A DNA stretch of 64,000 nt. It comes from Candidatus Doudnabacteria bacterium RIFCSPHIGHO2_02_FULL_42_25. GTDB taxonomy: Bacteria; Patescibacteriota; Doudnabacteria; UBA920; O2-02-FULL-48-8. How positions within the stretch are numbered: position 1 is the first letter of the stretch; every line of letters begins with the position of its first letter. Below, one piece after another: positions 1 through 57,346 of this stretch. The stretch is taken from positions 213,442 to 277,441 of the forward strand of contig MFEQ01000006.1 of assembly GCA_001777665.1 (NCBI GenBank). Reading direction: 5' to 3'. A program made the translations under genes and the position numbers. Under the pieces are notes generated by a model. That model had not been told where the DNA came from and did not search any database. It worked only from the letters and a program-made list of their open reading frames with translations.

Positions 1-43
1 TAATTTAGCCGATCGTCAAATTTAGTAAGTATTAACAAATAAA

Positions 44-2008
44 TTAATGGCGCATATTATCTATAATCCTACGGTTGGCAATATACGTGTCTGCTAAAGT
101 TTGCAACTCTTGACGGTTTAATTGGTACTCCACCCCATTGATCCAAACATAAGCTCCATAAGTAGATTCCCTACGACCTTGTGTTCCTCGGTCAGGACCT
201 GCGGTTCTTATGTTTCGCCCATTTGATCGAAACTCAAACCTGACTCTTCCGTGTTCAGGAATATTCGGTGGAGGCATATTGGCTGGTCGTCCACTCATGT
301 CGATATCAGTTCTAGCCACTCTGTTTAAAAGTGTTTGCAAAGCATCTCTATCACGATAAATGTTCATCAGATCGTAATCTCTGGTTCGTGACCTACCTAA
401 CATATTCCTCTCACTCATTAAAGTAGGGGTCATACGCATATAGCGATCAACGACAAAAGCCAAACCATCAACTCGTGCAGCTAACGGCATACTGGGATCA
501 AAATCGAGCTGAACTCTCTGACTTTCTTCGCGTTTGCGCCAATGTCTTGCTCCTCTGACAACTTGTTCGCTGTATTGCGCTTGTGTTTCATCAGTCCCTG
601 AATAGCCTTTGACTACATCGCGACTTGGACGAACCGGATCAAAATGATCTCGTCGAATATTTCTGCCGACACTTCGGGCTTGACCTCGAGTATCACGATC
701 TAAATCTCCTGTACTTGGCACAGGGCCAGGTGTAAATTCAGCATAGACCCCATGAGTATCTCTGTCGGGCAAAGGGATGCGGCCAAGCAAAAGCAACAGA
801 GCTGGCAAAGGTAGAATCAAAACATAACTGCGCTCGTCAGTGGTGATCGTTACAGCAACTTTACGTTTTTCGCCTATGATTTGGTCTAGATCTTTTTTGA
901 TTTCTTCTTGACTGATCGAACCTGCATTGTAGCGTTTAACTAATTCCAATAATCTTGGGTCTTCTGGGCCGTTAGGGCCAATTTTAATTTCAAAGGCATC
1001 ATTGAGAAGTTTATCACGTTCTTCTTTAGATAAATGTTCCTCACCTTTGCCTTGATATTTAATTTCAGATACATCAATCCCTTTATCTTTAAATACTTGC
1101 TGTAAAACATATGCAGCGTTTTCTGCTCGCATTTCTGATAAAGTTTGATTCCGGGGATCATTCGTATCAATGCCCTGGTCTGATTCCGGAGAAGCGAACC
1201 CATCAATTTTTACTTCACTAACTTCCACTGATCCTTGACGACCGATGTTTTTAACTTCATCTTTATGGAAAGATAAACCAATAACTCTGGGTAAAATCTT
1301 TTCTATTAAGGCTTTAGCTTTAATCTCCATATCCTCTTCCATTTTCTTCTGATCAACTGGGCTGGCTTTACTAAAGTCATGTGCGTATTCATAAGGAATA
1401 TCAGCCGCAAAGACAAAAGGTTCGTCTTCGGATCCACCTGTGACTATTCGAGTTGGCAGAGCATGCTCTTTGCCTAATCGAAACTTAATCCCAAATGAAA
1501 GGGGTTCAACAAACATTTTGCCAACATCAGCTAAAGATTCCGGTCGCTTTAGATTATGTTTGAGAAAAAAACCTAATTCGTCATCTTCCACAATGACATG
1601 ATCACCTTCAAACCGAAGAGTCATTGGCGCTGGAATATCTCCTTTTTCTCGAATCACCTTGTATTCTTTTTCCTGCGATTGAAATGCAGATTGAGCTGCC
1701 CCCGCTTCAGCGGTTAAAACCAAGGCTGCCAAACTACCCCTAATAGTAGCCGGCAGTTCTCGAATTCTATGCAATATTGAAGATTTGCTGGCACTAGTTT
1801 CAGCTACTAGTGCAACTTGATCAACTTCTTTAACAATATCCTCTGGCCGTTGCAAATCGGACGCAATTTCTGACTTCAACCCTAAGGACTGTTTTACTGC
1901 CCCAAGCAATTTCGGTACCCGATGCCTTTTACTGCTTTGATTTTCGATCAATGTTTCTGTCTCTTCTCGTGGAACAAACTCACCTTCTGGTATCTTTCGT
2001 CTTTCCAT
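44..2008 (-). CDS. hypothetical protein (654 aa) with an internal hydrophobic segment; bracketed by 32-bp direct repeats
   Basis: Long ORF with no competing frame. I recognise no domain. Nearly identical 32-mers lie at 1..32 and 2031..2062. Confidence 0.5.
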   Translation of the reverse strand: MERRKIPEGEFVPREETETLIENQSSKRHRVPKLLGAVKQSLGLKSEIASDLQRPEDIVKEVDQVALVAETSASKSSILHRIRELPATIRGSLAALVLTAEAGAAQSAFQSQEKEYKVIREKGDIPAPMTLRFEGDHVIVEDDELGFFLKHNLKRPESLADVGKMFVEPLSFGIKFRLGKEHALPTRIVTGGSEDEPFVFAADIPYEYAHDFSKASPVDQKKMEEDMEIKAKALIEKILPRVIGLSFHKDEVKNIGRQGSVEVSEVKIDGFASPESDQGIDTNDPRNQTLSEMRAENAAYVLQQVFKDKGIDVSEIKYQGKGEEHLSKEERDKLLNDAFEIKIGPNGPEDPRLLELVKRYNAGSISQEEIKKDLDQIIGEKRKVAVTITTDERSYVLILPLPALLLLLGRIPLPDRDTHGVYAEFTPGPVPSTGDLDRDTRGQARSVGRNIRRDHFDPVRPSRDVVKGYSGTDETQAQYSEQVVRGARHWRKREESQRVQLDFDPSMPLAARVDGLAFVVDRYMRMTPTLMSERNMLGRSRTRDYDLMNIYRDRDALQTLLNRVARTDIDMSGRPANMPPPNIPEHGRVRFEFRSNGRNIRTAGPDRGTQGRRESTYGAYVWINGVEYQLNRQELQTLADTYIANRRIIDNMRH

Positions 2009-2064
2009 ATACTATTTTGATTAATATTACTAATTTAGCCGATCGTCAAATTTAGCAAGTATGA

Positions 2065-3735
2065 CTATTTAACTATTTCTTGCTTTTCTACTTTTTGATC
2101 TTTAGTCAGATCAAAGACGGAACTTGATAATTTCGAGTTTAGTGGGATGGTGAAGATAAAACTGGAACCCTTTCCTTCACCTTTTGATTCGACCCAAATT
2201 TTACCTTTATGTTGTGCGATAATAACTTTCGCGACATAAAGACCCAGGCCCAACCCTGTGGAATTTTTCGGTGCTCTGTTTCCTCGGTCATATTTCTCAA
2301 ACACATGACTCATCTGATCCTTGGAGACTCCCCGACCAGTATCAGTGACTTTCAGGGTAATTTCCTTATCGTTTTTCGATATCGAAACCGTGACCTTGCC
2401 AGCTGGGGTATATTTAATGGCATTATCAACTAAATTATTTATAACCTGCCGTAATTTTTCTTTATCAGCAGTGAGTTCAGGCATAGCTTCTTTAGGTTTT
2501 TCGTAGACTAATTCGATTTTCTTCATTTCAGCCTGGGGTAATAACTGATCCACAGTGATCTGGGTAATTTCAGCTAAGTTCGTAGGTTGAAATATAAATT
2601 CCAATTTTCCTCGTTCGATACGAGAGGCATTAAGTAAATCATCTATAAGGGCCACCATGGAATTATTCGTCATCATGGTTTTCCGTAACTGTTCATGAAC
2701 AGATGGATCCATCTTTCCATAATCACCATCGAGAATAGACGCCAGATACCACTTGATGGTTGCGGGTGGAGTTCGAAGTTGATGTGAAGCAATCGTAATA
2801 AAGTCCGCCCTCGCTTTATCCAAAATCTTCAACTTCTCATTCGCCGCCTCTAATTGTTTGTCCAAAATCTCAAGCTGTTGGCGCTGCTTAACTTCTCTAT
2901 TGACACCACGTACCAGAAGAATTCCGACTATCGAAGTTCCTATCAACACAAGAAAATTTGTTACATATTGCCCGACGGAAGTAGTGTTAACTAGTTGAAT
3001 AACGAGAATCAAATTCAACAAAATAACAGCCAGCTCAGCCAAGAGAGCTTTGATGTTTAATAATTTATGTCTAATCATTGCGTAAACTGTAAAAAGTACA
3101 AAAGGTAATGTATAAATATGGCCGAAATTAACATATTTGGTCTGATCGGTCACTACAGCAAGAATAAAATTAAAAGTTAATACAAGGACAAAGGTTAAAA
3201 ACAAACCTATTCCGATGAGCCTCCACTGAATTCGCTCTATCCCCTTTGCAAAATGCCAAGATTTAACTATATGAACAAAAGCTAAAATTATAAAAGTAAA
3301 TGCATAGATCCCGAACAGAGCCATTCCAATTCCTGCGATGGGTGTGATTATGCCATTTTTAACTTCCGTATGAGTAAATAAAAACGGCGATCTTGCTAGC
3401 AAAACAAAAATACCTACTAAAATAACTAAACTCCAAGAATAACTTCTACTGATTATATCTTTTTTATTCAAGAAAGAATGAATAAAAAGAAAAAATAGTA
3501 TTGGATGCGGTACCGCAGCGGCAATTGTCCATCGTGCCATACTTAGAATAGTATCCGGGTTACTACGTGCCGCAAAATAGTTAACCATTATCCAAATCGT
3601 CTGTGATAGTCCAAACAAAATAAATAATAACCTGCTTCGATCTTTCGGTGCATAACGGAACACAATCAATACCAAAGTAACATTGGCAATCAATGCTGTT
3701 ACAAATACAGGAAATTCTAATTCTACTAGATTCAT
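2065..3735 (-). CDS. sensor histidine kinase with N-terminal 7TM domain
   Basis: About seven N-terminal TM helices. HisKA H-box IASHQLRTPPATIKW. HATPase_c motifs NLVDNAIKYT, DTGRGV and GLGLGLYVAK. A 4-bp overlap with the upstream gene indicates an operon. Confidence 0.85.
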   Translation of the reverse strand: MNLVELEFPVFVTALIANVTLVLIVFRYAPKDRSRLLFILFGLSQTIWIMVNYFAARSNPDTILSMARWTIAAAVPHPILFFLFIHSFLNKKDIISRSYSWSLVILVGIFVLLARSPFLFTHTEVKNGIITPIAGIGMALFGIYAFTFIILAFVHIVKSWHFAKGIERIQWRLIGIGLFLTFVLVLTFNFILAVVTDQTKYVNFGHIYTLPFVLFTVYAMIRHKLLNIKALLAELAVILLNLILVIQLVNTTSVGQYVTNFLVLIGTSIVGILLVRGVNREVKQRQQLEILDKQLEAANEKLKILDKARADFITIASHQLRTPPATIKWYLASILDGDYGKMDPSVHEQLRKTMMTNNSMVALIDDLLNASRIERGKLEFIFQPTNLAEITQITVDQLLPQAEMKKIELVYEKPKEAMPELTADKEKLRQVINNLVDNAIKYTPAGKVTVSISKNDKEITLKVTDTGRGVSKDQMSHVFEKYDRGNRAPKNSTGLGLGLYVAKVIIAQHKGKIWVESKGEGKGSSFIFTIPLNSKLSSSVFDLTKDQKVEKQEIVK

Positions 3736-4793
3736 ATATTGCCGATTATTACTGGTGATCTTTTAATTGACCCGGCTGATGGTGGGTCAGCATAGCCAAG
3801 TCGAAAAATCATTATAGGGATCTCATCCGAAGACAGAGAAAAAATTTGACGAATCTTATTTTCGGCGTTTTTGATTAAATCCATCTGTTTGGGCAAAAAT
3901 TCGCTCGTATCTCCACCGTTTATTCGCTGGGCTAAAAATAAAATTGCCGCCACTGGCTGCATACTTAAACCAAGTCCAGTGCCAGTCAACCAAACTCTTT
4001 GAAAAAACCTACCAGCTAATATAAGCTGATCTTCACTAAGCCCAGCTGTTGCGATAATTCCGTAAGCCGGGGTAGATGCATAGAGCTTTGCAGAATCTTT
4101 GGAAACCATTTTTGACACGCCGAAATGATTCAAAAAATTAATTATTTGCCAATTTCTAAAAAGTTTAAAAGCCTTTTCTTGAAGTGGAGCTAATTCTAGA
4201 GTCTTAATATACATTCCATTTTTGGTTTTATCTTCATCTGTTTTTGACCATCGGATATATTTAAATAATCCATCATGAATTTTTTTATTTTCAAGTATAA
4301 GTCTCTCATTTAGATTTAGTGTACTACTTAACGCTTTTATTGCTACCGGGTCTTCCAAAATAAAATATTTTTTTATATTGTTTTCTCTCGGTACATTCAA
4401 TAAAATATTTAAATCCTCAGGCGGAATGGACTTACTTAGATATGGCTTCCGGTTGGTCACCCGTAGTGGAATTTGCTTTGCTTGGTTACTATCTCTTTTA
4501 TCACTAGGCAAGAACGTTACCTCGGCAATCAGTCCCGAAATGTTTTCTTCGGGGAATAATTTTATGGCAGTTTCAAAACCTGTAACGCCTGCTAAAATTT
4601 TAATATTTTCTATTAGTGCACCAATCCCTATATAAGAGCCTCTTTCTTCAAAGTTATAAAAGCTATCGTCAGCACCAAAAACGATATAGACAAAAACTCC
4701 ATTATCTTTCAATTTGAACTTCCATGGTTGAGAATTATCACCGGAAGGGGCCAACACAGCTTGATTTAATATTTGTTTTATAATTTCTCTCAT
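3732..4793 (-). CDS. nitroreductase-superfamily protein with duplicated domain (SagB/Acg-like)
   Basis: N-terminal APSGDNSQPW motif typical of nitroreductase/SagB-type FMN enzymes. The approx 350-aa length is consistent with a tandem nitroreductase fold. Confidence 0.65.
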   Translation of the reverse strand: MREIIKQILNQAVLAPSGDNSQPWKFKLKDNGVFVYIVFGADDSFYNFEERGSYIGIGALIENIKILAGVTGFETAIKLFPEENISGLIAEVTFLPSDKRDSNQAKQIPLRVTNRKPYLSKSIPPEDLNILLNVPRENNIKKYFILEDPVAIKALSSTLNLNERLILENKKIHDGLFKYIRWSKTDEDKTKNGMYIKTLELAPLQEKAFKLFRNWQIINFLNHFGVSKMVSKDSAKLYASTPAYGIIATAGLSEDQLILAGRFFQRVWLTGTGLGLSMQPVAAILFLAQRINGGDTSEFLPKQMDLIKNAENKIRQIFSLSSDEIPIMIFRLGYADPPSAGSIKRSPVIIGNI

Positions 4794-4794
4794 T

Positions 4795-6231
4795 TTATGT
4801 AAGAACCATCCTGGCTTTTTTGCCCTTCGTATTTAATAATCCAGCAATTTTTCCTGTTTCAGCTAATCTACCATATGGTTCTAGTTTTACTTGGGGTTGC
4901 GCCTTGGTACCGATTGCAGAATATAGTTTCCGATATTCGATACTTAATTCACTCAATTTTGAAGAAATAGTATCGACAATTAAATTTAACATTCTTGGAT
5001 TCGCTTTAGTTTTCTCTGCCAACTCCAGTTTTAGGTGGAGCTTTTGATTTTTTTGATTTTTTGAATTTTGATTATAAGCCAAATAATTACCAGTTAAATA
5101 TTTCGAAATCTTTCTATCTTCAAGACTTGTTTGTAAATTTTCAGGATAAACGTTTATTGCATAAAAAGTCACAGCGACATCAGTACGACCTTTTTTTACA
5201 AAAAAAGGCATCTTCCAAAATTGGAGGCCGTGTTCCTTGGCCTTATTAAGCAAACCTAGCTTTTTAAGTTTGTCTTGCATTTCATTATAAGGAATAATAG
5301 CCCCTTGATCATGAATATTGTATCTAATTAATGGGATGCTGGTTTTTGTTGTAATCAACAACTCATCATTCACTACTTCGAAATATGTAAGATATGGATC
5401 GTATTGCATCAAAGCCGGCTCGACTACTTCTTGCTCAAAAACTTGTTTATACAAAGCTGGGTTCTTCAGAGCTTCTTCACGGATATAAATACTGATTGGG
5501 GTTTCATGTCCTAACGCCCCGGTGTCCGCAGAACCATAGATACTTATAATATTTTTTTTAGAATTGATTCCGAGTAAATCAAGTAGACTCCGACGCCATT
5601 CTTCCGTAAATTTATCCCCCGCCGTAATGACAAAAGTATTTTTAGAAAACTTTATTTTTGCCTTCCTTGCATCATTGACTATGTCCATAACAAATGGAGG
5701 ATAACCTGCAATTACTATGTTTTTGAAATGAGGTCCGAGTATTCGCAAAGAATTAATTATATCGATTTTTTCAATTCCTGGTGTAATTGTGGATAAATTA
5801 AATCCTTTTCTAGAAAGATTTCTGCAACAAGCCAGAGTATAATTGCCTGCCACCCAAAGTCCCATAGCAAAACAAATAACTACCAAGGTCGAATCGTCTT
5901 TTTTTATCCTAAAAATATCAGTAAAAATCTTTTCATGAAATTTTCCCCCAATCTTCTCTTGATCATCACCACGGAACCAGAAAGTCGGCTTGCCGGATGA
6001 ACCTGAACTAGCGTAAATCATTGGAGCAATTTTATCTTTAGAAAAAAAACGATTAAAAGGATATTGATAAAGATAATTTTTCTTTTCCATTATCGGAACC
6101 TGCTCAAATTCTCTATGACTTTTCACCTTTGAGGGATTGAAATGATGGCGAGAAATAAAATCTTTGTAAGACGGTACCTCTTTGGCAGCATCTCTAAAAA
6201 TTCTTATTGCATTTTTTAATCCTTGTCTCAT
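4795..6231 (-). CDS. adenylate-forming enzyme, phenylacetate-CoA ligase (PaaK/CapK/F390 synthetase) family
   Basis: AMP-binding P-loop-like SSGSSGKPT. Length and overall architecture fit the PaaK family. Packed tightly between neighbours. Confidence 0.7.
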   Translation of the reverse strand: MRQGLKNAIRIFRDAAKEVPSYKDFISRHHFNPSKVKSHREFEQVPIMEKKNYLYQYPFNRFFSKDKIAPMIYASSGSSGKPTFWFRGDDQEKIGGKFHEKIFTDIFRIKKDDSTLVVICFAMGLWVAGNYTLACCRNLSRKGFNLSTITPGIEKIDIINSLRILGPHFKNIVIAGYPPFVMDIVNDARKAKIKFSKNTFVITAGDKFTEEWRRSLLDLLGINSKKNIISIYGSADTGALGHETPISIYIREEALKNPALYKQVFEQEVVEPALMQYDPYLTYFEVVNDELLITTKTSIPLIRYNIHDQGAIIPYNEMQDKLKKLGLLNKAKEHGLQFWKMPFFVKKGRTDVAVTFYAINVYPENLQTSLEDRKISKYLTGNYLAYNQNSKNQKNQKLHLKLELAEKTKANPRMLNLIVDTISSKLSELSIEYRKLYSAIGTKAQPQVKLEPYGRLAETGKIAGLLNTKGKKARMVLT

Positions 6232-6234
6232 TTG

Positions 6235-7323
6235 TTATTTAAATTGAGATCTGAATAGTTCTGTTTTTTGTTTCCTAACTTCTCGATTCTTTTCATTATT
6301 ATAATCTGGTATTAATTTCTCCTCGAGACTTATTTGATATCGCCCAGATGGCATGATTTGATGATTGGCAATCTTTCGTACGACGTATCCTACAGCAGCA
6401 CCTGCGACATTTGCGGTTGAACCAAGTTGCGGCACGGCCGAAATACTCTTACCTATTTCAGAAACAGATTCCTGCATACTCTCACTTAAAAATTCAGGAC
6501 CAACAATTTTAGTTGCTAGTTTCAACCATGAGTGAAAATCAAGTTTTGTTACCTGTTCTAGGGTAATATCCACCAAACCATGGAAGATCGGACGCTCGGG
6601 CTCCAAATCGAATCTTTCCACATCGAGTATAACACCGTCACCGTTATCCGTAGCCATAAGTACAGGAATTTTTCTATTTTTGCAATAAAACCGTGCCAAT
6701 ATCTTTAAATCGATGCTATCCATCTCATCAATAAAAACTTCAATTTTCGGATTACCTAGAAATTCTAGTAGGTTATCTTTGGTTAAACCCTTACTGTAAA
6801 CATTTAATTCTGCGAAAGGATCAAGTTCCCAAATCCAGTCTGCTGCGATTTCTGTTTTATTGCGCCCCAAATCAAGCAAATTTGAATTTATTCTGTTTAA
6901 ATTCGTAAATTCTAAATTATCATAATCAGCAATGCTCATGGTCTTTGGACCACCAGTCCTAACCAAGGCATTTATAATCGATGAGCCGACCGAAAGACCT
7001 GCAACACCAACTTTAATATTTCGAAAATTTGTCTGTTCCTCAGAAGTAATAACTAATTTATTTCGAGCAGTTCTTAACTGAAAATAATAGTCTTCAGGTA
7101 AAATGTGTATAGCTTTTTTATGATCGGAATAATACACCCAAATTCCCTGTATTTTATTCTCCGTTAAAAAATTATCTAAAGCGTCTTGGTATCCTGAATA
7201 GCTTTTTTTGTATTGAGGATTTTGAACAAAAAATAATTCTTCCAATCCAGATGAAAAAACATCGATTATTTCTGCATCTTTTGGAACTTCTGATCTACTA
7301 TTGTAAAATTTCGGTTGCCCCAT
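6235..7323 (-). CDS. ThiF/MoeB/HesA-family E1-like protein
   Basis: Rossmann motif VGVAGLSVGSSIINAL after an approx 100-aa N-terminal domain. E1-like size. Confidence 0.65.
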   Translation of the reverse strand: MGQPKFYNSRSEVPKDAEIIDVFSSGLEELFFVQNPQYKKSYSGYQDALDNFLTENKIQGIWVYYSDHKKAIHILPEDYYFQLRTARNKLVITSEEQTNFRNIKVGVAGLSVGSSIINALVRTGGPKTMSIADYDNLEFTNLNRINSNLLDLGRNKTEIAADWIWELDPFAELNVYSKGLTKDNLLEFLGNPKIEVFIDEMDSIDLKILARFYCKNRKIPVLMATDNGDGVILDVERFDLEPERPIFHGLVDITLEQVTKLDFHSWLKLATKIVGPEFLSESMQESVSEIGKSISAVPQLGSTANVAGAAVGYVVRKIANHQIMPSGRYQISLEEKLIPDYNNEKNREVRKQKTELFRSQFK

Positions 7324-7337
7324 CGGCCTTTTAGAAT

Positions 7338-8885
7338 TTATCCATTAGCGAAGCTTTTAAAATATTCAACCAACGCAGAAAGTTCTTTTGTTAGTGAACG
7401 GTCTTCGATAACTGTCGCTACTTTCTCGCGAACTTTATTGTACATTTCGTGCGTCGATTTCGCTAGCTTTTCTTGAAATTGCAAAAAATCAACTGCTTGA
7501 GCTAAAGTTACAGCTTCAATAGTAGTAACTATATAAGTGTTTTCCACTACTTTATCCAATATCAACGAGGCATCGGTACCCATGCTCACAACATCTTGAT
7601 TATCGGCGTTTGTCGGAATAGAATGAATGCTATGGGGAAAAGCATAGGACTGATTTTGGGCGGTAGTTGAAGTAGCGACAAATTGTAATCCTTGAAGTGC
7701 TAAGGTTAACCCAGGCTTATTTAGGTTAAGAAACGGCGGGAAAAATTTGTTTATGCTTTGGTTCATAAAGAAATTTATCCGTCTTTCGGAAAGAATCGAA
7801 AGTTTAACCAGAGACATTTTTATCTGATCAACGGTAACAGCTATGTAGTCCCCATGAAAATTCCCTCCATGTAAAAATTCTTTGTGCTCCCTGTCTAGAA
7901 CCGGATTATCCGTCACCGAATTGATTTCAATTTCTATAACTTGAAGGCTATTTGTAACTGTCTCCAAAATCGGACCAAGTATTTGGGGAGTACAACGGAA
8001 AGAGTAAACTTCTTGTACGAAATCAGAAATCTGGTGAACAGTATCAGTAATCTTATTATTCCTATTCAAACTGTCTCGTTTTCGTAAAAGCTGACTTGTT
8101 TCAAGTAGTTCTCGTAAACTTTTGGCTATCTCTATTTGTCCAGGGTGAGGACGAAGGTTATGCAATTCTTTCGAGATTCCGTCATTGTAAGCTTGTATCA
8201 ATTCTAAAGATAGTGCGCTGTTTTTAATTTCTATGTTTAACAAATTTTTTGCGTGCATCCATAGTATCGATGCGATTCCAGACATCACAGAGGTTCCATT
8301 GATTAAGGCCAGACCTTCTTTCGGTTTTAATTTATACGGCTCTATTCCTAATTCCTTAATCACATCTATAGCTTGTCGACGTTTACCTTTATAATCAACT
8401 TCCCCTTCTCCGATTATGGCTAATGCAATATGCGCCAATTGCACTAAGTCACCACTGGTGCCCACCGCGCCGTGAGTTGGAATAACTGGTGCAATTCTCT
8501 CATTTAAGTAAAGTACTAGTCTTTCGATTAATTCGACTGAAACGCAGGAATATCCCTTTGATAGAGTATTAAGTCGCACTAACATAGCGGCAAATACAAA
8601 ATCTTGTCTTAAAGGTTCACCCATTCCAGTAGCGTGGCTACGAATCAAATTTGTCTGTAAATCTATGAGCTGTTCCTTGCCGATTAAATATGAAGCCATT
8701 GGACCCAATCCAGTATTGACGCCGTAAATTACTGTGTCCCTCAGTTTACTAGCCAAAAACTCATAAGAACTTTTAATTGAAGCGAATACAGACTTCGATA
8801 GCTTAACTTTTACAGTACTGTCTGTCACAAATCTAAATATATCCACAGCTCGTAATCCCTCGCCGTTTATTTCAAGACTATTCAT
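7338..8885 (-). CDS. aromatic amino acid ammonia-lyase/aminomutase (HAL/PAL family, MIO-dependent)
   Basis: GVNTGLG and GTSGDL(V)QLAHIA motifs, with TSG in the position of the MIO-forming ASG triad. 515 aa. Confidence 0.8.
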   Translation of the reverse strand: MNSLEINGEGLRAVDIFRFVTDSTVKVKLSKSVFASIKSSYEFLASKLRDTVIYGVNTGLGPMASYLIGKEQLIDLQTNLIRSHATGMGEPLRQDFVFAAMLVRLNTLSKGYSCVSVELIERLVLYLNERIAPVIPTHGAVGTSGDLVQLAHIALAIIGEGEVDYKGKRRQAIDVIKELGIEPYKLKPKEGLALINGTSVMSGIASILWMHAKNLLNIEIKNSALSLELIQAYNDGISKELHNLRPHPGQIEIAKSLRELLETSQLLRKRDSLNRNNKITDTVHQISDFVQEVYSFRCTPQILGPILETVTNSLQVIEIEINSVTDNPVLDREHKEFLHGGNFHGDYIAVTVDQIKMSLVKLSILSERRINFFMNQSINKFFPPFLNLNKPGLTLALQGLQFVATSTTAQNQSYAFPHSIHSIPTNADNQDVVSMGTDASLILDKVVENTYIVTTIEAVTLAQAVDFLQFQEKLAKSTHEMYNKVREKVATVIEDRSLTKELSALVEYFKSFANG

Positions 8886-8937
8886 ATTTTACTTATTTAT
8901 ATTGAATTTACCTTCTTATTATACTGATTATCAATAA

Positions 8938-8982
8938 ATAAATCAAATTAAAACACCCTCCGAAAAATGATAACTGGAGGGT
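8938..8982 (-). terminator. rho-independent terminator after the RHS-immunity unit
   Basis: Stem ACCCTCC/GGAGGGT with a U-rich tract on the minus strand. Confidence 0.5.
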
Positions 8983-9088
8983 AAAAAACAATTAGGACTA
9001 CTAAATTTCTTAGCTTATTTTGAAAAATAATCCATAATTAATGCAACTAACATCCACGAAAATAAAATTGTACCCGTTGCTTTTTTGT

Positions 9089-9448
9089 TCATTTAATTCG
9101 CCAATAATAAAGTTTTGTTAGGTCTTCTGGATAGGAATCTCCATAATCTAATCCTGGTTTCTTAACTTCGAAATTATCACGTTCTGTGAGCTGTCTCCAA
9201 GTTGAATCCATTTTATATTTTTTTGGACTAGCCTTAAAGAGCAATCTCATTAGAATATTGTAAGTACTATATCCAATTCTAGCAAAGTTCTTCTGAGCTT
9301 GAATCAAGCTAACATTATTAGCGCCCAATGTGCTAGGAAATCTAAGTTGCCCTTCGTCATCTTCCCATCCACAAACTGAACAAGTGTCGTACGACCCTGG
9401 GGGATTATTGAAAGTTAAATAACCACACGCTGGACAAGTATATTGCAT
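9089..9448 (-). CDS. CPCC-family cysteine-rich protein
   Basis: N-terminal CPACGY...CSVCGWEDD motif characteristic of the Cys_rich_CPCC family. Confidence 0.55.
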   Translation of the reverse strand: MQYTCPACGYLTFNNPPGSYDTCSVCGWEDDEGQLRFPSTLGANNVSLIQAQKNFARIGYSTYNILMRLLFKASPKKYKMDSTWRQLTERDNFEVKKPGLDYGDSYPEDLTKLYYWRIK

Positions 9449-9464
9449 GTTTATTTTTTATTCG

Positions 9465-9887
9465 CTAGTCCAGAGACAAAGCTCTTGTCTCTCTAGACTT
9501 CTCTACCAAATAAGATCTCGATAAATAGATGGCAAATATTGCCCACCAAACTAAAATAAACGGATTTGGTACTTGTGAAATTTGATAAGCTTTATCCAAG
9601 GTTATTATTACTAAAGCAATAATCATTGCTGCTTTTTTACCTTTGAAGATAAAATACGCTAAAGGTAAATAAATAACCAAAGCCAAACCAGCTGTCATAA
9701 CATCTATCGAACCTCTTAGAAATCCTATCAATGTAATAATTAATGAAAGTATTAACAAGATAACCGAAATTCCTCTATAGGACTGCCTAAACTTCAGGTC
9801 ATTATACTTATCGACTTGGATTCTAATCTCATCTTCACTTAGCCTAAGCAATCCCACCTTGTTTTTCTTTTCTGTAATGTTGCTCAT
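9465..9887 (-). CDS. small integral membrane protein, hypothetical
   Basis: 140 aa with 3-4 predicted TM helices. Lies in the RHS downstream unit. Confidence 0.45.
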   Translation of the reverse strand: MSNITEKKNKVGLLRLSEDEIRIQVDKYNDLKFRQSYRGISVILLILSLIITLIGFLRGSIDVMTAGLALVIYLPLAYFIFKGKKAAMIIALVIITLDKAYQISQVPNPFILVWWAIFAIYLSRSYLVEKSRETRALSLD

Positions 9888-9898
9888 ATTGTTCTACC

Positions 9899-10228
9899 TC
9901 AGTTGCTTTGAATAAATAAATTTCTTAATTCATCAAGAAGTTTTTTTACATCCTCTTTTGAGACTCCGTCGTATAAAGCTTCAAAGTCTCCATTTTCGTA
10001 ATAGAGAAGTTCTAACGCATTTATCACAACTTCCAATTTTTTTATTGGGATACTACTATTATTTTTCTCAAAATCATTCAGAGCAGATCCGAATTCTTTT
10101 TCAGTTGCAACAAATTTAATTTTATTGGGTTTATATGGGTAACCCCGGGCATCGATCAAACTCTTAGCAATTATGTATGATTCATCCTTAGCAAAACCAA
10201 GTACTATATTATTTTTTAATTCAATCAT
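9899..10228 (-). CDS. hypothetical protein, candidate cognate immunity protein of the RHS toxin
   Basis: 109-aa ORF starting 5 bp after the RHS stop. This is the canonical position for an immunity gene (inference). Confidence 0.4.
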   Translation of the reverse strand: MIELKNNIVLGFAKDESYIIAKSLIDARGYPYKPNKIKFVATEKEFGSALNDFEKNNSSIPIKKLEVVINALELLYYENGDFEALYDGVSKEDVKKLLDELRNLFIQSN

Positions 10229-10232
10229 ATTA

Positions 10233-13200
10233 TTATCTGTTAATATCTTTCTTTATGGTATCTTTTAAATACTCCAATCCATTTTTCGGCTGAAATAATG
10301 TTGGTTGTTTCGGATTATTTATAAACAAGTTATTGTTCTTAGAATCATAATAATACTTCTTAATACCCTTAATATTAACCTTAATATCAAAGCTTTCGAA
10401 CGTTTTTTTAGCGATATTAGATATTTCTTGTTTAGACAGTCCTGGGTAATGATTTTTAATTATGGCATGCTCTGCTGCTCTATCGAATGCACTGGTTTTT
10501 GTAGTTGAACGTAAAGGAACAATTACAGAACTCTTACTCTTGGTATCAAGAACTTTATCTAAAGTTCTTATAAGATTATTTATTTCTTTAGCACGACCGG
10601 TTGTGGCAACCTTTGTTGCAGCAACTCCAGCACCCATAGTGTAAATAGTGCCTGCCGTCATCCCAATTTCTAGAGAGGTTGCAATAACGTTTGCAGTTGT
10701 TAATGTTGTGTCCTTTACTCCTCTACCGACTCGTCCCCAATCGCCGTCGAAAAGTCCTTCGGCTATATCATCAAATGATTCGCCGTACAAATAATGAACG
10801 GGATTATACTTATCCAGGAAATTAACGGCGTTAACCAAACTCCTCGGTAAATGACCGTCAGGATCTATGTAAGCAAGCGGGTTATTCCTCGCATAACTGT
10901 AGCTATTCAGTAGTTGTGGGTCACTCAAAACTTCAATCTGACCTGAACCTAGCCCTATAAATACTGGATCCTGGCTGATGAACCTACCAATACTACTATT
11001 GTAATACCTGGCGTTCATATATGACAACCCCGTATCCACGTCATACTCATGCCCAGCAAATTTTCGCTGCTCACTAAAGGTTCCCTGTTTCTGATCCAAT
11101 CTAATTCCACCGAATGGAAAATAATCCATTAACTCTTCTTGCAGACCGGTATTATTGGTCACAACATTTGATCCAGTTAAATGATCAGTATGTACAGAAT
11201 ATACTGAAGCACTGGCGCCAACTCCTTTGACGGTTGCAACTGTTTGAGTAGTCGGAGACACTATGTGTTTAGTAGGTACTGTGCCATCTGTGTTGTAAAA
11301 ACCGGTGGGATAATCAGTACTGATGCTACCATTCGATGATCTTACTCTTTGCCCCTCGTGGTCATAAGCATAATTTATGGTTGTTTGATTTGCATATGTA
11401 ACTTCAAGAACAGGATCGAAAGCAGTGCCGCTGTATTCAGAAGATCTTAGAGTCAACTGGTTGCCGCCTTTTCCACCAGTATAAGAACTGTTAATTACAT
11501 CGTGTCCTTCTCTTAGAGCTAGTAATGTATTACCAGTTTTCGAAATCCATCCCTTTCCCGTATTGTTCAAATTAAGCGTCAAGTAGGCGTTCGTACTGAC
11601 ATTAGTTATATCTTTGCGTTCTGAAGTATCTATGCCTTCAGTTGGATTAGTTATGGCTCCCGCGTTATCATAGTCATTTAAAACTAGACTAGTTGGGCTG
11701 GCTTGAGAGCCTTGCACTACCGTTACCCAATCATCACCATCGTTATCAGGATTGGTTTTACCATGCACATATACTTTCAATTTTGCATCGACTATGGAGG
11801 TGTTATCTGGTAAAGCAGAAGTATTGAAAGCCAGAAAGGCTCTTTCAATTCGATAAGTACTGTTATTTGTTTTTCCAGCCTGAACAGGCATGGTGGTGGA
11901 AGTATAACTTTGGCCTGAACCACTAGTAGCGTCATGAACACCACTCCAAGTGGAATAATTTTTATAAACATTACCATCACCCGATTGAACAGAAAATGTA
12001 GTCGTAGTGTTCGAACCGCCAGCTAACGATGCTTGGATCAAGCGGTTGTTATAATCGTAGACATAATTCTTATTACCTTCAGTTATCATATTCCCGTTGC
12101 TGTCATAACTAAAAGTTGTTGTGTTTGTTCCGTCACTAATACTTGTCACTGCATGGGGATTGGCATATCTGGAACCAGAGCTGCCATCATATGCATACGT
12201 ATAAATAGTTGTAGGATTAATTCCGATTGTTTCGGCACGAGTTAAAATATTACCAATGGCATCATAGGAGTACGTTTGACCATAAGTCGATTGGCCGGCC
12301 GCGACATTCGTTGCTGCGGTTGACATCAGTCGATTTAGATCATCATAAGTATAATCAACTGTCTTACTGGAGTTAGTATCAGAACCATCAACAATTCGGG
12401 TTATATTTCCATTAGGGTCATATGTATAACTAAGATTTTGCAACTTCAAACCATTAGCAGCTGTCGTGTTTTTATTAGTTAAACGATACAGTTTTGTAGA
12501 ATCATAAATGTTTGATGTAACTGGACCATTTGCGTAAGCTTGATAAGTAACTTGACCGTGTGGACCATAGTCCAGATCGCTCACTACATTTACAAACGAA
12601 CCGTCTGTAGCTTCTTTCCTTTTGATGGTTTCTAATTGGCCGCCTTGATTGTATGCATATTTTATTTTAGAATTATCTGGATTGGTAACTTCCAACAAAT
12701 TTCCTTGACGGTCATAGTTATAATCAGTTTGATAACTTGTTGAACTGATAGTTTTTGCTTCTTGTTTCAGTCCGCCCAAAGGATTATATAGATAATCAGT
12801 ATTTGCTCCCGAGGACTGCACTGAAGTTAGTCTACCAATTCCATCAATACCAGAATCGTAATTATACGTAACTTCTGTTCCTGCTTGGCCAATATAGTTT
12901 TCAGTTAGTCTTCGGTTGATATCGTCATATGTGTACTCGACTTGCTGATTGTTTGGGTTTGTACTTGAGATAAGATTGCTCGAATCATCGTAAATATAGC
13001 TCCATAGACCGAAGGTTGTGTCAGTAGGATTATGTAAATCTTCTGATCCTATGCGACGGCCTAACCCATCATAGCTAAAATTGCGAATGTTACCCGAAGC
13101 ATCAGTTATCTTGGTGAGGTTACCTAAATAATTATAATCATAATGAGTGGTATAAGTATTTCCGGAATTAAATTCTTCAACCTTTACCAAATTCCCGTAT

Positions 13201-16200
13201 GCATCTTTATACAGATTTTTGATCTTGCCTTTTGGATCAATTACGGTAAATTTCTGATCATTGTAAATATTACTTGAAGTACCTACCGCATTCGTAACAC
13301 TAACCACTCTTTGCATCGGATCATAGGTGTGCAGAGTTAAAAGGTTAGGGTTTGTATTAACTGATGTTTTACTAAACCCATTTGAAAAGTATGGCAAAGA
13401 TTGTTTATAAACCTGTCCGAGGTTGTTATAAACCGTATCAGCGACGGAGTAAACATTGTTATCTTCTGTCTCTTTCCTGATTTGCACAGGTCTATTCAAA
13501 CCATCATAGTAGGTATAAGTATCGACAGCGTTAGAATTGTCTAAATAATCAGTTTTCTTCGAACTCACGGCACCCGGAGTATCAGTATATACATACTCTG
13601 TTTTCACTACTATGGTTTGCGGATCAGTTAAATCCGGCTGTTTCTCGGCAATGACGCGATCCAGGCCATCATAAACAGATTGAAACACTCGAGAATTAAT
13701 ATCAGTAATCTGCTTGGGTTTGCCTAATGAGTAATCGTAGACATACGAGGTGCTTTGGTTTAAAGCATTCGTAACTGTTGCTGGATAAAGATTATTTGTA
13801 TCGTAAACATAACTGGTGGCTTTACCTCGCGGATCAATATCAGTAGTTATTAATCCAAATGTTGGATCATAATTTTTTTGAATACTTACATAACTCGAAC
13901 CTGCTTTCCAATTTTCCTGTTGAGTGAGATTCCCCCTAGAATCATAGCTGTACTTAGTTTCCTTGACCTTATTCGAACTTTGGTCAACTGTGGTTTCTTG
14001 ACTTGGGTACGCATAAATGTAGTACGTTGCATTAGCGACATAAGAAAAGTCCGTTGTAAATTTATCAGTTCCTGTATCGGTATATGCTCCATCATCGCTG
14101 CCAGTAACTTCTCCCCATTCTATCTTTTGACTCAGATTGCCAGTGGTGTTGCTGTAAGTATATTCTTCTGTCTTGTCTTTGTGATCCGCATCACCATCGT
14201 AAGTAAGTTCTGTGGTTCTTACAAGTTTAACAAAATTCCTACTATTACCAAGATCATATTTATCCCATTTGTTGACTGTTTTAAGATAAATATTACTGCT
14301 TCCGTCTTTCATTTCTGATCTGTATAGTTTACCAACTTTGGAGATGTGATCACTATATTCACCATTACTACTATCAGTAGTGTTACCTTGATGGTAATAC
14401 GTTTTAGTGACTTGACCAGCCGCATTAGTTTTATTGATTATATTAAATCCGGCAAATTGTCTATCAAATGAAGTGTTAAAGTAATAACTGCCGCTCTCAT
14501 AACTATATGAAGTTGTGTAAGTGGAATTTACTTTGTCGTCGTTAGTAAGTTGATAGACAGTGTCTAAATTAATTCTTGCACTCGGATTTAATAGAGTTGA
14601 GCCACTAACATACCTAGCACTGGCTTTGTAAATAACAGCTGTCGTTCCAGCACTTGGATATGTAATTTTATTTGTAAGGTCAGCTTTGTTTCTATTATTA
14701 AATCTCGTGCTGCTCACAACACCATTACTACTATAAGCGCGGATGAGATCAACCATCCCATCAGCGTTTATATCCACTGCTTGAGTGCCGGTCTCTCCGT
14801 TACTACTGGTGACAAATTCCTCAACAGCGCCCCAATTAGTTCCTGTTTGCGTCCATCCATAACCGTTGTTATAGTAGCTTACTGGCGTCCCACCGCCAAT
14901 AAATTTTGATAAATCTATCAATCCATCACCATTGAAATCAAATGGACGTACTCCTTCATCAACATTGCTTCTAAATACCATTGGTGGAGCCCAAGAAGTA
15001 TTATTTGAAGTCCAACCTGCACCATTACCCAGATACGCTTCTTTGTACTGAGTTTGTCCATTTTGCCATCCACGCAACAAATCGGCTAATCCATCATTAT
15101 TGATATCTATAATAAATACACCTAATTTCAAATCAACTGGCACTATCCAATTTACCGAAGTCCAACCTGCACCATTATTAAGATATACATCGTCAACAAT
15201 AGTGCCATTATTATCATAACCTCTAATTACATCCACTAGTCCGTCACCATTTAAATCAGCCAATTGTGACGTGTATGAATCACCCGAGGATGAAGGACCA
15301 AAGGGTATCGGTGAATACCAAGTGGAATTATCTGCTGACCAGCCACTTCCAGTATTTAAATATGCTTTATTGACACCAACTGTGGCCTGCAGAATATCAT
15401 TAAGTCCGTCTCCGTTCACGTCAGCTATTCGAACACCCTGGTCTACTCCTGAACTATCAAAAAACTGAATTGGAGGTTGATAACTAGCACTTGTTGTCCA
15501 AGTACCATCTTGGTCGTTTAGATAGGCTGTTTTTGTGCTCCCATATGAATGGAGAATATCAGGGTAGGCATCACCATTAACATCAGCAATATATACTTCA
15601 CTGAAAGGGACTGGATACGTCCAATTAGTATCGTTAGAGTTATAGTTAGAGCTCCCATTATTGTTTGTTATTTGGTAATCAAAATCTGTTACAGGGAGTG
15701 AAACCGTGTTTGAACTTTCGTCTTGACCAGTTTCTGTAATAGTATTTAAGACATATCTTCGTCCATTATCTGCTGCTGTATATGCTAAAGCCCATTTCCT
15801 GGCCCAAGTATCACTAATTTTTGCTTGAATCTCATAAATTCTGTAGCTAGTAGTCACACTAAACCCAGGCTTATAACTAATTGTTGAATCTGATCTAGAT
15901 TCTTTTAAAAATTCGATGACAAAGATACCATCAGTTGAACCATTTCCTGTATATGTAATCTTGTATGGATAAATCTGGCCAGCATCCTTTGTATATTCGT
16001 ATTTGATATAGTTTTCATTTCTATCTCTAACTTCTTGAAGCATCCATTTGTAGATATTACTTCCGCTATCTTGTCTTTCCGCAGCATTTGTTCCAAATTT
16101 ATATGCAGTTCCTTTCTTATCTTTTACTGTCCAAACATTGTCAGTTAAATCATAGGTTAAAAATTCACCATTATCGACTTTGGAACCCCAAGATGAACCA

Positions 16201-16802: not shown

Positions 16803-16822
16803 AAATAAAATATTAATTATGC

Positions 16823-24225: not shown

Positions 24226-24256
24226 AAAAATGTGTAATTACACATTTTTTACGACT
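24226..24256. repeat. palindrome AAAAATGTGTAATTACACATTTTT plus TACGACT; downstream copy of the 24-bp direct repeat flanking the PaaX_C-like gene (other copy 24948..24971)
   Basis: Perfect 24-bp palindrome. The 24-mer tgtaattacacattttttacgact is identical at both gene ends. Confidence 0.8.
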
Positions 24257-24932
24257 AGATAATACTCTTATCTTTGAAGAATTGGTTGAGCTTTTCTTCA
24301 TCATCAGCATCTAATTTGGCAGCTTCGGCTACTGTCACAAAGTTTTCGATTTCATAATACACTGCGACGAACTCAATCTGATCAGTTGGTTTATAGGGAT
24401 AAACCCAAACTGTCCTTTGCAGCGGATAAAAATTCATTAACTTAAGCTTTTCTCGAAATAAATCTGCCCGTCTCCGATAAGGATTTGAAGGAATATCAGC
24501 CAGTACAAACCACCAATGCTTGCGCAAACGCGAGGTTTGCGGGATAGTTAGATTTTCAAAATTTAATCGTCTTACTTTATCCTCTCCTTTTTTCGTAATC
24601 TTCATAACATAGTCCTCCCCTTCTCTCATCAATTGAATATAACCATATCTTTTCAAATAATAAAAAGACTTAACAATATCCTTTTGACGTTTTTCAAATC
24701 GCTGTTTCCTGTCATAGCCGCTATAACCATAACGTTGGATTTTTCCTAACGCACTTAGTAGATTAGGGGCGATGACTGCTATAGCTACTGTTCCGGCGAG
24801 AATACCTGTCGCGAGCACAACCTCTGCCGCAGTTTTCAACATCGCTACTTGCTGATCGCTAAGCTTGGGTTTCTTGGAGGCAGTGCTCTTTCGTATCAAC
24901 TGCGATATATTTATATCCTGCTTAATTCGCAT
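24255..24932 (-). CDS. membrane-anchored PaaX_C/Cas2-fold domain protein (paralog 1 of 3), putative regulator
   Basis: N-terminal TM helix, basic wHTH-like middle region, C-terminal RKHWWFVLADIPS...FREKL...FYPLQRTVWVYPY matching the PaaX C-terminal/Cas2-like signature. 60% identical to 56669..57346. Confidence 0.5.
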   Translation of the reverse strand: MRIKQDINISQLIRKSTASKKPKLSDQQVAMLKTAAEVVLATGILAGTVAIAVIAPNLLSALGKIQRYGYSGYDRKQRFEKRQKDIVKSFYYLKRYGYIQLMREGEDYVMKITKKGEDKVRRLNFENLTIPQTSRLRKHWWFVLADIPSNPYRRRADLFREKLKLMNFYPLQRTVWVYPYKPTDQIEFVAVYYEIENFVTVAEAAKLDADDEEKLNQFFKDKSII

Positions 24933-39308: not shown

Positions 39309-39455
39309 CCCGTTAGAAATAATGATTAGTTAATTGTACTTGTCTAATTATAATTGTCCCGCCGAGTATAAAAGTTACAAACATAAACTCTGTAAAATTT
39401 CTAACGGGATTCATATCTCGTATAGTTTATCAAAAACTTCACTTTTTGTAAATAG

Positions 39456-39488
39456 TGACCTATTTAGTCCGATCGTACAAATAGGTAA
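39456..39488. repeat. 33-bp palindromic repeat TGACCTATTTAGTCCGATCGTACAAATAGGTAA (copy 1; copy 2 at 40049..40081) flanking PaaX_C-like gene paralog 2
   Basis: The two copies differ at one base. Internal inverted arms CCTATTT/AAATAGG surround a CGATCG core. Confidence 0.8.
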
Positions 39489-39490
39489 GA

Positions 39491-40042
39491 TCAGCCCAGA
39501 TTGAATTTTTTAACCAGGTCAGAAAAAATATCAATTTTTCCAGCTGTTATTACTCTAACGAACGGTCTGATCTCATAAATCTCTTTTAGAAAGTCAATTT
39601 CATCCTCGCAAGGATAAGGACAAACCCAGACGCTTTTTTGAATCATTTTAAAGCCAAGCTCAATTAATTTTTCTCTAAATACTTTTCTGTTTAGTTTAAA
39701 TTCTTCTGGAATATCAAAAACGACTATTCGCCATTGTTTATCCCAACGCTTGGGTTTTTGAATTTTCATTTCTTCTAAATTAAAACTAACTAACTTTTCT
39801 TTTCCTTCTTTTGTTAAAGTAAATTCAGTTTTGCCGTTTTTGTAGGCTACTCCGATATAACCTCTCTTCTTTAAATTACTAAATGATCTTTTTATTTGCT
39901 GGCGATTATAGGACTTTAATCGTTTATACTGACCAAGGGCGACAAAAAGACCCGGTGCTGTCGCTGCCACTACAAATATTCCCGCTACTCCTATAAAGGC
40001 TAAAATACTTTTCGCAATTATTGATTTGTTGCTCTTTTTCAT
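39491..40042 (-). CDS. membrane-anchored PaaX_C/Cas2-fold domain protein (paralog 2 of 3)
   Basis: N-terminal TM. C-terminal KQWRIVVFDIPEEFKLNRKVFREKLIELGFKMIQKSVWVCPY. Confidence 0.5.
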   Translation of the reverse strand: MKKSNKSIIAKSILAFIGVAGIFVVAATAPGLFVALGQYKRLKSYNRQQIKRSFSNLKKRGYIGVAYKNGKTEFTLTKEGKEKLVSFNLEEMKIQKPKRWDKQWRIVVFDIPEEFKLNRKVFREKLIELGFKMIQKSVWVCPYPCEDEIDFLKEIYEIRPFVRVITAGKIDIFSDLVKKFNLG

Positions 40043-40048
40043 AAATTT

Positions 40049-40081
40049 TGACCTATTTGGTCCGATCGTACAAATAGGTAA
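40049..40081. repeat. 33-bp palindromic repeat copy 2
   Basis: See 39456..39488. Confidence 0.8.
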
Positions 40082-56668: not shown

Positions 56669-57346
56669 TTAAATTAACTCTGCTGCTTTGAAAAATTTTG
56701 TTAATTTTTCTTCGTCGTCCGGATTTAATTTAGATATTTCCATCACGGTCACAAACTGCTCTATTCCATAATACACCGATATAAACTCAACTTGATCAAT
56801 TGGGTTATATGGATAAACCCAAACAGTTCTTTGCAGCGGATAAAAATTCATCGTTTGAAGTTTTTCCCGAAACAAATCCGCGTGATGCCGATACTCTTTC
56901 GATGGAATATCAGCCAAAACAACCCACCAATGCTTGCGCCACCGACTGTCGCGTGGGATTTCTAAATAATCAAAATTCATTCGCCAAATTTTTTCTTGCC
57001 CTTTTTTCGTTACAGTCATGACGTATTCATCTCCTTCTTTCATCAACTGAACGTAACCATAACGTTTAAGATAATAAAAAGATCTAACTAAAACCTTTTG
57101 ACGTTTCTGAAACCGTTCCTTTCGATCAATCCCATGGTAGGAATATTTTGCAATTTTACCTATGGCATTCAATAAATTTGGCGCGATAGCAGCTATGGTA
57201 ACAACTCCAGCAACTGCTGCCAAAGCCAAAATGGCTTCCCCTGCTGTTTTCAATACCGCAATTTGTTTGTCATTCAGAGTAGGTTTTTTGGATACAGTGC
57301 TATTTTTTATAACAGCCGCAAAAGCAATTTGGTCTTTTATCCTCAT
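56669..57346 (-). CDS. membrane-anchored PaaX_C/Cas2-fold domain protein (paralog 3 of 3)
   Basis: 60% identical to 24255..24932. AT-rich codon usage inside a GC-rich block. Confidence 0.5.
   Translation of the reverse strand: MRIKDQIAFAAVIKNSTVSKKPTLNDKQIAVLKTAGEAILALAAVAGVVTIAAIAPNLLNAIGKIAKYSYHGIDRKERFQKRQKVLVRSFYYLKRYGYVQLMKEGDEYVMTVTKKGQEKIWRMNFDYLEIPRDSRWRKHWWVVLADIPSKEYRHHADLFREKLQTMNFYPLQRTVWVYPYNPIDQVEFISVYYGIEQFVTVMEISKLNPDDEEKLTKFFKAAELI

Follow-up and report, generated by a model that had tools for sequence, protein, structure and literature searches.

The bracketed gene and its repeats

We analysed a stretch of 64,000 nucleotides (nt) from the genome of Candidatus Doudnabacteria bacterium RIFCSPHIGHO2_02_FULL_42_25 (assembly GCA_001777665.1, contig MFEQ01000006.1, positions 213,442 to 277,441), hereafter the window. 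At its left edge, a gene called as an open reading frame (ORF) for a hypothetical protein of 654 amino acids (aa) (44..2008, minus strand) is enclosed by two copies of a short, imperfectly palindromic repeat. Here, we describe this repeat pair and its relation to the palindromes around genes of small PaaX-like regulators, which we call mini-PaaX. The initial annotation had reported near-identical 32-mers at positions 1-32 and 2031-2062, both reading TAATTTAGCCGATCGTCAAATTTAG(T/C)AAGTAT. They do agree at 31 of 32 positions, with no match expected in shuffled sequences, and they belong to a longer unit. In the orientation of the gene, the full repeat comprises 47 nt, ATACTT[G/A]CTAAATTTGACGATCGGCTAAATTAGTAATAT[T/C]AATCAAA, of which 45 are identical between the copies. 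Its full length was read from L001, a gene-oriented locus retrieved by an exact-protein look-up (contig MFFA01000003.1, GCA_001780055.1), which contains 10 kb of additional sequence to the left of the window.

The upstream copy (A-up; 2016..2062, minus strand), delimited by comparison of the repeats, lies in the 56-nt gap between the stop codon of a seven-transmembrane histidine kinase gene (2065..3735, minus strand) and the ATG of the 654-aa gene. It begins 2 nt past the kinase stop codon and ends 7 nt ahead of the ATG, and its imperfect palindrome, CTAAATTTGACGATCGGCTAAATTAG, is centred 33 nt ahead of the ATG. The downstream copy (A-down; 1..32 plus 15 nt left of the window edge, minus strand), delimited in the same way with the help of L001, starts 11 nt past the stop codon of the 654-aa gene and has its centre 32 nt past it. 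Directly after A-down, outside the window, follows a terminator-like hairpin, GCATTAGCGAAAGCTAGTGT with seven T residues (L001 12024-12043). The two copies stand in direct, not inverted, orientation. Their motif has a CGA·TCG core (the dot marks the centre) and arms TTACTAA/TTAGTAA at positions 10-16 from the centre; A-down is the better palindrome of the two, its arms matching at 7 of 7 positions. The order of the genes is the same in 24 contigs carrying the neighbouring kinase gene, drawn from NCBI, ENA and Logan assemblies. Because these contigs are independent, the arrangement of the repeats is not an assembly artefact.

As RNA, the motif forms a weak hairpin (-4.6 kcal/mol, z about -0.5 to -1.4) without a T-run. 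The earlier suggestion that it is an intrinsic terminator is therefore rejected, all the more since a separate terminator-like hairpin follows A-down. A weak TTGACG-N17-TATTAA is visible by eye at A-up, and was not flagged by the promoter scan. In the 64 kb of the window and 16 kb of extra sequence, the motif occurs four times and no more. These are two pairs, the second one near 39.5 kb, and in the window all copies are paired around single minus-strand genes, as the initial annotation had it. Over this length, the motif is not widespread between genes. Repetitive extragenic palindromes and miniature inverted-repeat transposable elements would be scattered over a genome in many intergenic copies; the sequence scanned has bracket copies only, and others may lie elsewhere in the genome. 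A census of the motif in a genome collection, this genome not being among those covered, returned one chance match, in a Planctomycete. Two repeat types were ruled out: a highly iterated palindrome of the cyanobacterial HIP1 type (GCGATCGC occurs only twice in the 64 kb, and the organism is a Doudnabacterium), and an array of clustered regularly interspaced short palindromic repeats (CRISPR), as there are two copies around a 2.0-kb gene and no array.

In the 654-aa protein, residues 264-329 weakly resemble OmpA, and a hydrophobic segment lies in the centre. No PaaX-like domain is hidden in it (hhalign probability 0.1%), and it has no matches in the PADLOC defence and PHROGs phage libraries. 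Homologues in other metagenomes (49-63% identity) stand in unrelated contexts, and flanking repeats are absent at the five homologous loci examined, which rules out the bracket as a property of this gene family. At two metagenome loci, genes for AbiEii-type toxins adjoin the homologue (L002 3450-3809, L005 695-1243). Taken together, the contexts of the gene family appear variable and island-like. To the left of the window, a 101-aa ORF (L001 12120-12425, minus strand) is convergent with the 654-aa gene. Its G+C content is about 0.50, versus 0.43, and it has no match in NCBIfam, PADLOC or PHROGs. Possibly it is foreign DNA that was inserted between pilB and the 654-aa gene.

Mini-PaaX proteins

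Mini-PaaX proteins of bacteria of the Candidate Phyla Radiation (CPR) are 170-225 aa long and consist of an N-terminal hydrophobic helix, a winged helix and a Cas2-like domain. The window encodes three paralogues, all on the minus strand: a 183-aa protein with this domain order (39491..40042), and two proteins of 225 aa (24255..24932 and 56669..57346). The 183-aa protein had previously been described as PaaX_C-like. It carries instead PaaX_M, the Cas2-like middle domain (Pfam PF20803), which matches the three window paralogues with E = 3e-22, 8e-11 and 2e-12. There was no match to PaaX_C in the mini-PaaX proteins, which end after the Cas2-like domain (181-225 aa), and TIGR02277 scored 38 bits on them, below its cut-off of 264.

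An AlphaFold2 model of mini-PaaX (mean predicted local distance difference test score, pLDDT, 80) has Escherichia coli PaaX as its best PDB match in Foldseek (8a39, E = 6e-7). The next fold matches are other PaaX-like proteins, PadR-type winged-helix regulators and Cas2. A sequence search of the PDB with the family profile gave no significant match; the matches came from the fold search. Hidden Markov models of Cas2 match mini-PaaX at E = 5e-9. Cas2 signatures are kept in residues ~104-143 of the 183-aa protein (WRIVVFDIPEE ... IQKSVWVCP, the Asp being invariant in the family alignment), and some databases label family members as Cas2 or VapD. From its sequence, the N-terminal helix is predicted to insert into the membrane. 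Elsewhere, mini-PaaX genes adjoin pilB, type IV secretion pilins or VirB4/TraG-like genes, and a viral collection contained a single family member. In the literature searched, we found no papers linking PaaX-like proteins with CPR/Patescibacteria or describing brackets of this kind.

Palindromes at the mini-PaaX genes of the contig

The second pair of the motif surrounds the 183-aa gene. B-up (40036..40081, minus strand) contains the CGATCG-core palindrome TTACCTATTTGTACGATCGGACCAAATAGGTCA and ends 9 nt before the ATG, while B-down (39443..39488, minus strand) has the same palindrome and starts 2 nt after the stop codon. The initial annotation had proposed a core in common between this pair and the one around the 654-aa gene. 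As written, ATTTAGNCCGATCGTNCAAAT with an obligatory N, the pattern matches only 39462-39482 and 40055-40075, and the copies at 1 and 2031 need the N to be optional. The kinship itself stands. The two motifs share the oriented 8-mer ACGATCGG on the gene strand, and their half-sites, TTACTAAWTTT at the 654-aa gene and TKACCTATTT at 39.5 kb, begin equally far from the core. When the 654-aa motif was aligned with about 100 palindromes of the family, the 39.5-kb pair came out nearest, with local alignment scores of 17 and 15, compared to at most 13 for the others (median 8).

Just downstream of B-down, the leader of a cyclophilin gene (38676-39308, minus strand) contains a perfect 12-bp inverted repeat, CCCGTTAGAAAT / ATTTCTAACGGG (39309-39320 and 39397-39408), one arm of which abuts the cyclophilin start codon. 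This repeat may be a translation- or attenuation-type switch.

The two 225-aa paralogues are flanked by palindromes of their own. Those at 24223-24257 and 24948-24972 have a TGTAATTACA core, and those at 56611-56667 and 57372-57428 have the form GTCGCAAAAA..TGTAATTACA..TTTTTGCGAC. A fourth paralogue, P0018, is found on the same contig at a distance of about 126 kb and is bracketed by ACCTAGTTGCCCATATGGGCAACTAGGT. None of the four paralogues located on the contig has exactly the palindrome of the 654-aa motif.

The bracket as a family trait

A scan of metagenomes yielded 80 mini-PaaX loci, 61 of which were non-redundant and had enough flanking sequence. For each of them, the best ungapped match between the upstream and the downstream flank was scored against a null of mismatched-locus pairs. 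The match exceeded the 99th percentile of the null in 44 of the 61 loci, and the null maximum in 30. The bracket is also present in L007, L009, L011, L013, L097, L098 and L099. Every mini-PaaX locus that we examined has its own, different palindrome upstream of the gene, and a second, related palindrome coincides with the stop codon or closely follows it, the median distance from stop codon to centre being near 38 nt in the family, versus 32 nt at the 654-aa gene. The downstream ORF is convergent in 12 of the 33 bracketed loci with a callable one, ORF calls in the metagenomic loci being crude.

As a control, the identical flank test was run on every ORF of 120 aa or more in the window and in all loci, 290 in total. 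A score of at least 15 was reached by 50 ORFs, all of them mini-PaaX genes or their antisense shadows, save for the 654-aa gene, whose score of 41 is the highest of the 290. Among the ORFs tested, it is the one observed case of a bracket enclosing a gene other than mini-PaaX.

Some family loci carry three to four copies of the palindrome in operator-like arrays, with a spacing of 57-139 nt where copies share one side of the gene (L065 1004-1308 and 2153-2188; L018; L036). In another locus, L011, the two bracket copies (2940-2985 and 3551-3594) are not identical, with changes at several positions, but both are perfect palindromes (44-46 nt); the changes are thus mirrored on both arms. Over the family, asymmetric positions are shared between the copies of a bracket in direct register in 56% of cases versus 29% in inverted register, in a test that is biased by the choice of pairs through direct matches. 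This sharing in direct register implies that the two copies of a bracket descend from a duplication.

Architecture of the palindromes and relation to promoters

When 44 palindrome pairs were aligned on their centres, a common bipartite architecture appeared, typically of about 36 bp, with a GC-containing core, AT-rich spacers and outer arms. Typical cores, at positions 1-4, are GCAT·ATGC, CGA·TCG, GCAA·TTGC and CCAT·ATGG, and the class as a whole has a core of the CGATCG or GCATATGC type. In the core (1-4) and the arms (12-18), symmetry amounts to 80-95%, and conservation between paired copies to 80-100%. In the spacer (7-11), which has an A+T content of 82-91%, symmetry drops to about 50-60%, and conservation between copies is lower. 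Folded as RNA, the family palindromes reach a mean of -12 kcal/mol (z -4.5), and a T-run follows only 5 of the 44 downstream copies. A hairpin would require a free centre and an unbroken stem, the opposite of the conserved centre and degenerate mid-stem seen here, which point to a protein that recognises both arms and centre.

The upstream copies are related to promoters. A -10-like hexamer follows 32 of the 44, at offsets that cluster at +32 to +36 from the centre, which makes the right arm, often TTGAC-, the -35 box. No such -10 cluster was found after the downstream copies of the 44 pairs. In general, the downstream copy cannot be explained as the promoter of the next gene, given the missing -10 cluster and the next ORF being convergent in 12 of 33 loci; it is an operator-like site without a promoter. 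The repeat around the 654-aa gene is a member of this palindrome class, which is associated with mini-PaaX genes across CPR metagenomes, and the suggestion that it is an operator gains from the bipartite architecture in common.

Sites away from the regulator genes and pairing of helices with arms

A site of the family is also found away from a mini-PaaX gene. The 28-bp palindrome of P0018, ACCTAGTTGCCCATATGGGCAACTAGGT, recurs perfectly at L001 12567-12594, about 540 nt beyond A-down and ~560-590 nt left of window position 1. It lies in the divergent intergenic region between the 101-aa ORF and the pilB/pilC/pilM genes. We count this copy as evidence that such sites may work in trans. In the same locus, a consensus promoter of pilB, TTGACA-17-TATAAT, is located at L001 12710-12738.

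Mini-PaaX proteins with the same recognition helix share the arms of their palindromes; for instance, QIKRS goes with ACCTA, NA[IV]GNLKRR with GATGTCA, and the QL.NA.Y group with TTAGTCA. The prediction that a QIKRS-type helix comes with ACCTA arms held for P0020. The arms of P0009, the closest homologue of the 183-aa protein, read ACCATTACTAA and contain the TTACTAA of the 654-aa motif.

Elsewhere in the window, an intergenic palindrome, ATAGGTC-N15-GACCTAT (50280-50320), is followed by a tandem CAGACCTAT CAGACCTAT; the ACCTA/TAGGT arm words occur in it in everted order.

Other features of the window

Upstream of the kinase gene, the region 3732-16802 (minus strand) is a co-directional cluster of lower G+C content (0.31-0.38). 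Its genes encode an aromatic amino-acid lyase, ThiF-like and nitroreductase-like proteins, a Cys-rich CPCC protein, and a 2189-aa protein with rearrangement hotspot (RHS) repeats. The cluster may be a peptide-modification or toxin-delivery island. The start of the 2189-aa RHS/FG-GAP gene (16799-16858) and that of a 565-aa gene (26962-27021) share a 60-nt segment with 72% identity, which contains TTGACAACAA and CAATGCTAGCGTTAG. These two genes may share the promoter/operator of another regulator.

A direct repeat of 126 nt, 93% identical between its copies, is found at 23941-24066 and 32206-32331, 8.3 kb apart. One copy abuts the 3' side of a tRNA-Pro gene (24070-24143, minus strand). The repeat could be the mark of an integrated element or of an old duplication.

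A proposed operator pair and its alternatives

The comparisons above make it moderately probable that the two repeats are a PaaX-type operator pair, which would place the gene of the 654-aa, presumably envelope-located, protein under a mini-PaaX regulator. In such a system, a mini-PaaX dimer would set its two winged helices on the outer arms of a palindrome, with the Cas2-like dimer across the centre. At mini-PaaX genes, one copy lies over the gene's own promoter, its right arm doubling as the -35 box, and the second one, which has no promoter features, just past the stop codon. The 654-aa gene would have acquired a bracket of this type. A regulator sitting on A-up, in the 56-nt gap, could occlude or block RNA polymerase, and thereby hinder initiation or read-through from the kinase operon. 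A-down, between the stop codon and the terminator-like hairpin, might act as an auxiliary operator that closes a repression loop of about 2 kb, or as a roadblock; the pair as a whole may have an insulator or roadblock role. The most likely binder would be the CGATCG-core mini-PaaX at 39491-40042, or a paralogue elsewhere.

Several points weigh against this proposal. Binding of the 654-aa motif by any mini-PaaX protein is a prediction made by comparison. The palindrome is poor relative to the family, with arms 2 bp nearer to the core than the family norm, and these arms differ at two positions from those at the candidate regulator's own sites (TTACTAA versus TTACCTA). A-up has no -10 hexamer at +32 to +36, and does not follow the promoter rule of the family. 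The pairing of helices with arms is confounded by phylogeny, and for P0009 the QIKRS prediction held only in part, with ACCAT instead of ACCTA. Further copies of the motif, and a cognate paralogue, may lie outside the 64 kb and 16 kb that were scanned. The identity of 45 out of 47 positions also runs past the palindrome, by 6 nt to the left and 15 nt to the right, with which a recent duplication leaving one functional copy is equally compatible.

Such a recent local duplication would have copied a 47-nt promoter-operator module to the 3' side of the 654-aa gene, or the reverse, and only A-up would be in use, the bracket being accidental and not yet decayed. Besides the extended identity, it would account for A-down having nothing to drive, with a terminator-like hairpin and a convergent ORF following it, and for the 654-aa gene being the sole non-regulator bracket among about 240 control ORFs. 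However, an accidental copy would have to mimic the geometry of the family brackets, both in the 33 nt from centre to ATG and in the 32 nt from stop codon to centre, and it is A-down, with its fully matching arms, that is the better palindrome. The downstream copies of the family also persist without promoter features, including in the 12 of 33 loci with a convergent next ORF, and a downstream copy lacking a promoter is therefore, as a rule, maintained. We regard the duplication as rather unlikely. Another history is conceivable too, in which a mini-PaaX gene upstream of pilB was replaced by the 654-aa gene and left its orphaned sites behind as a relic bracket. In another Doudnabacteria genome (GCA_016186915.1), the mini-PaaX gene P0058 does lie directly upstream of pilB/pilC, and here the 654-aa gene lies upstream of the pil operon, with the convergent 101-aa ORF in between. 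Yet tblastn detected no coding remnant of mini-PaaX within the bracket or next to it (all E > 0.4), orphaned sites should have decayed while these copies are nearly identical, and the copies sit close to the start and stop codons. We regard a relic of this kind as very unlikely.

The initial annotation had also considered cassette boundaries, that is, a mobile gene module inserted at a palindrome by site-specific or Campbell-type recombination, with a direct repeat left at each end, in the manner of integron attC sites, Xer/dif modules or att cores. Direct repeats tightly flanking a single gene would fit, as would 654-aa homologues in unrelated contexts, twice with adjoining AbiEii genes, the excess of asymmetric positions shared in direct register, as a duplication would give, and the Cas2 sequence signatures retained in the Cas2-like domain. 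But all 24 contigs with the kinase gene keep the gene order, without presence/absence polymorphism, and homologues elsewhere have no flanking repeats. Since each paralogue has its own palindrome, there is no single recombinase site in common, and a conserved core with distant arms and a degenerate AT spacer is unlike the core sites of tyrosine recombinases. Arrays of three to four copies at several loci and the perfect orphan copy upstream of pilB are not expected of cassette ends either, and no integrase was found among the called genes of L001, the whole window not having been screened. Cassette boundaries are thus improbable. Decidedly improbable is an element acting at the RNA level, either as 5' and 3' hairpins for stability or processing, or as an mRNA site for the Cas2-like domain, whose fold resembles an RNA recognition motif. 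Both copies are probably transcribed, A-up within the gap of a co-directional array and A-down before the terminator-like hairpin, and many family palindromes fold well. The 654-aa motif itself, though, folds weakly, conservation and symmetry in the family peak at the centre, with a degenerate mid-stem, T-runs are rare after downstream copies, and there is no Rfam match.

Should the operator pair be confirmed, it would matter beyond this locus. Next to nothing is known about transcriptional control in CPR/Patescibacteria, whose tiny genomes have few recognisable regulators and most lineages of which lack genetics. A widespread family of truncated, membrane-anchored PaaX-like proteins could then be paired with its sites by inspection, by looking for the cognate palindrome on both sides of the gene. 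This would open a route to regulon prediction in uncultured bacteria, here for a 654-aa envelope protein and a type IV pilus operon; several family loci elsewhere adjoin pilus or type IV secretion genes. A far bolder extension, speculative and in our opinion quite unlikely, is a so far undescribed CPR-wide system. In it, a membrane-anchored dimer with winged helices and Cas2-like domains would clamp a gene between two matched palindromes of about 36 bp, forming a closed insulating loop, perhaps tethered to the membrane, around the regulator's own gene and around envelope or pilus genes. At its boldest, the Cas2-like domain would have retained a DNA-handling function, and the enclosed unit would be related by evolution to the repeat-bounded units built by Cas1-Cas2.

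Comparison with known systems

To our knowledge, an operator pair bracketing a gene has not been described for PaaX. The PaaX proteins of E. coli and Pseudomonas, with their Px, Pa, Pz and pac operators, are nevertheless the closest relatives in fold, sharing the winged helix and the Cas2-like dimerisation domain, and in the type of operator, a long palindrome with short, widely spaced outer half-sites. The binding site of E. coli PaaX is TGATTC-N27-GAATCA, and the protein autorepresses through steric hindrance at its promoter (PMC9493321); widely spaced half-sites thus have a precedent in the parent family. The CPR proteins differ by having the N-terminal hydrophobic helix and no PaaX_C effector domain, and because this domain is missing, a response to phenylacetyl-CoA is not expected of them; they are truncated relatives of PaaX, but not PaaX by function. 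No paa genes lie nearby, and the CPR sites have an extra conserved, GC-containing core.

Imperfect palindromes at both ends of single-gene units are also known from integrons and from the pdif modules of Xer recombination. Integron cassettes stand in arrays beside intI, each ending in an attC site of 57-141 bp with R and L boxes, and pdif sites have 28 bp, with two 11-bp arms around a 6-bp spacer, flanking sites being inverted. Neither fits the present pairs. Integron cassettes were ruled out, as the pairs are isolated, 15-37 kb apart, and each has its own palindrome of ~26-46 bp, and so were pdif modules, given the conserved centre, the arms 12-18 bp off and the direct orientation of the copies. 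There is here no array, no site common to the units, a different internal architecture, no polymorphism in the 24 contigs, and no recombinase among the called genes of L001. CRISPR arrays, with at least three direct repeats of 23-50 nt and unique spacers of similar length, are built differently again.

With ToxR/CadC and Noc, the mini-PaaX proteins have in common that a DNA-binding domain is joined to a hydrophobic, membrane-associating segment in a single small protein. Topology and fold are different, with an N-terminal helix, a winged helix and a Cas2-like domain, and without a periplasmic sensor domain. The layout of the sites is best compared with lac O1-O2, gal OE-OI and deo O1-O2-O3, in which a second operator, hundreds of bp downstream of the promoter and itself without a promoter, is kept by selection. 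In the brackets, the second site comes directly after the stop codon, and the two sites thus enclose the entire gene. Their span is about 0.6 kb for the regulator genes and 2.0 kb for the 654-aa gene, a distance that mini-PaaX might bridge by looping or oligomerisation. Seen beside these systems, the gene-enclosing operator pair would be an unusual layout of an ordinary repressor-operator mechanism, in a poorly understood group of bacteria.

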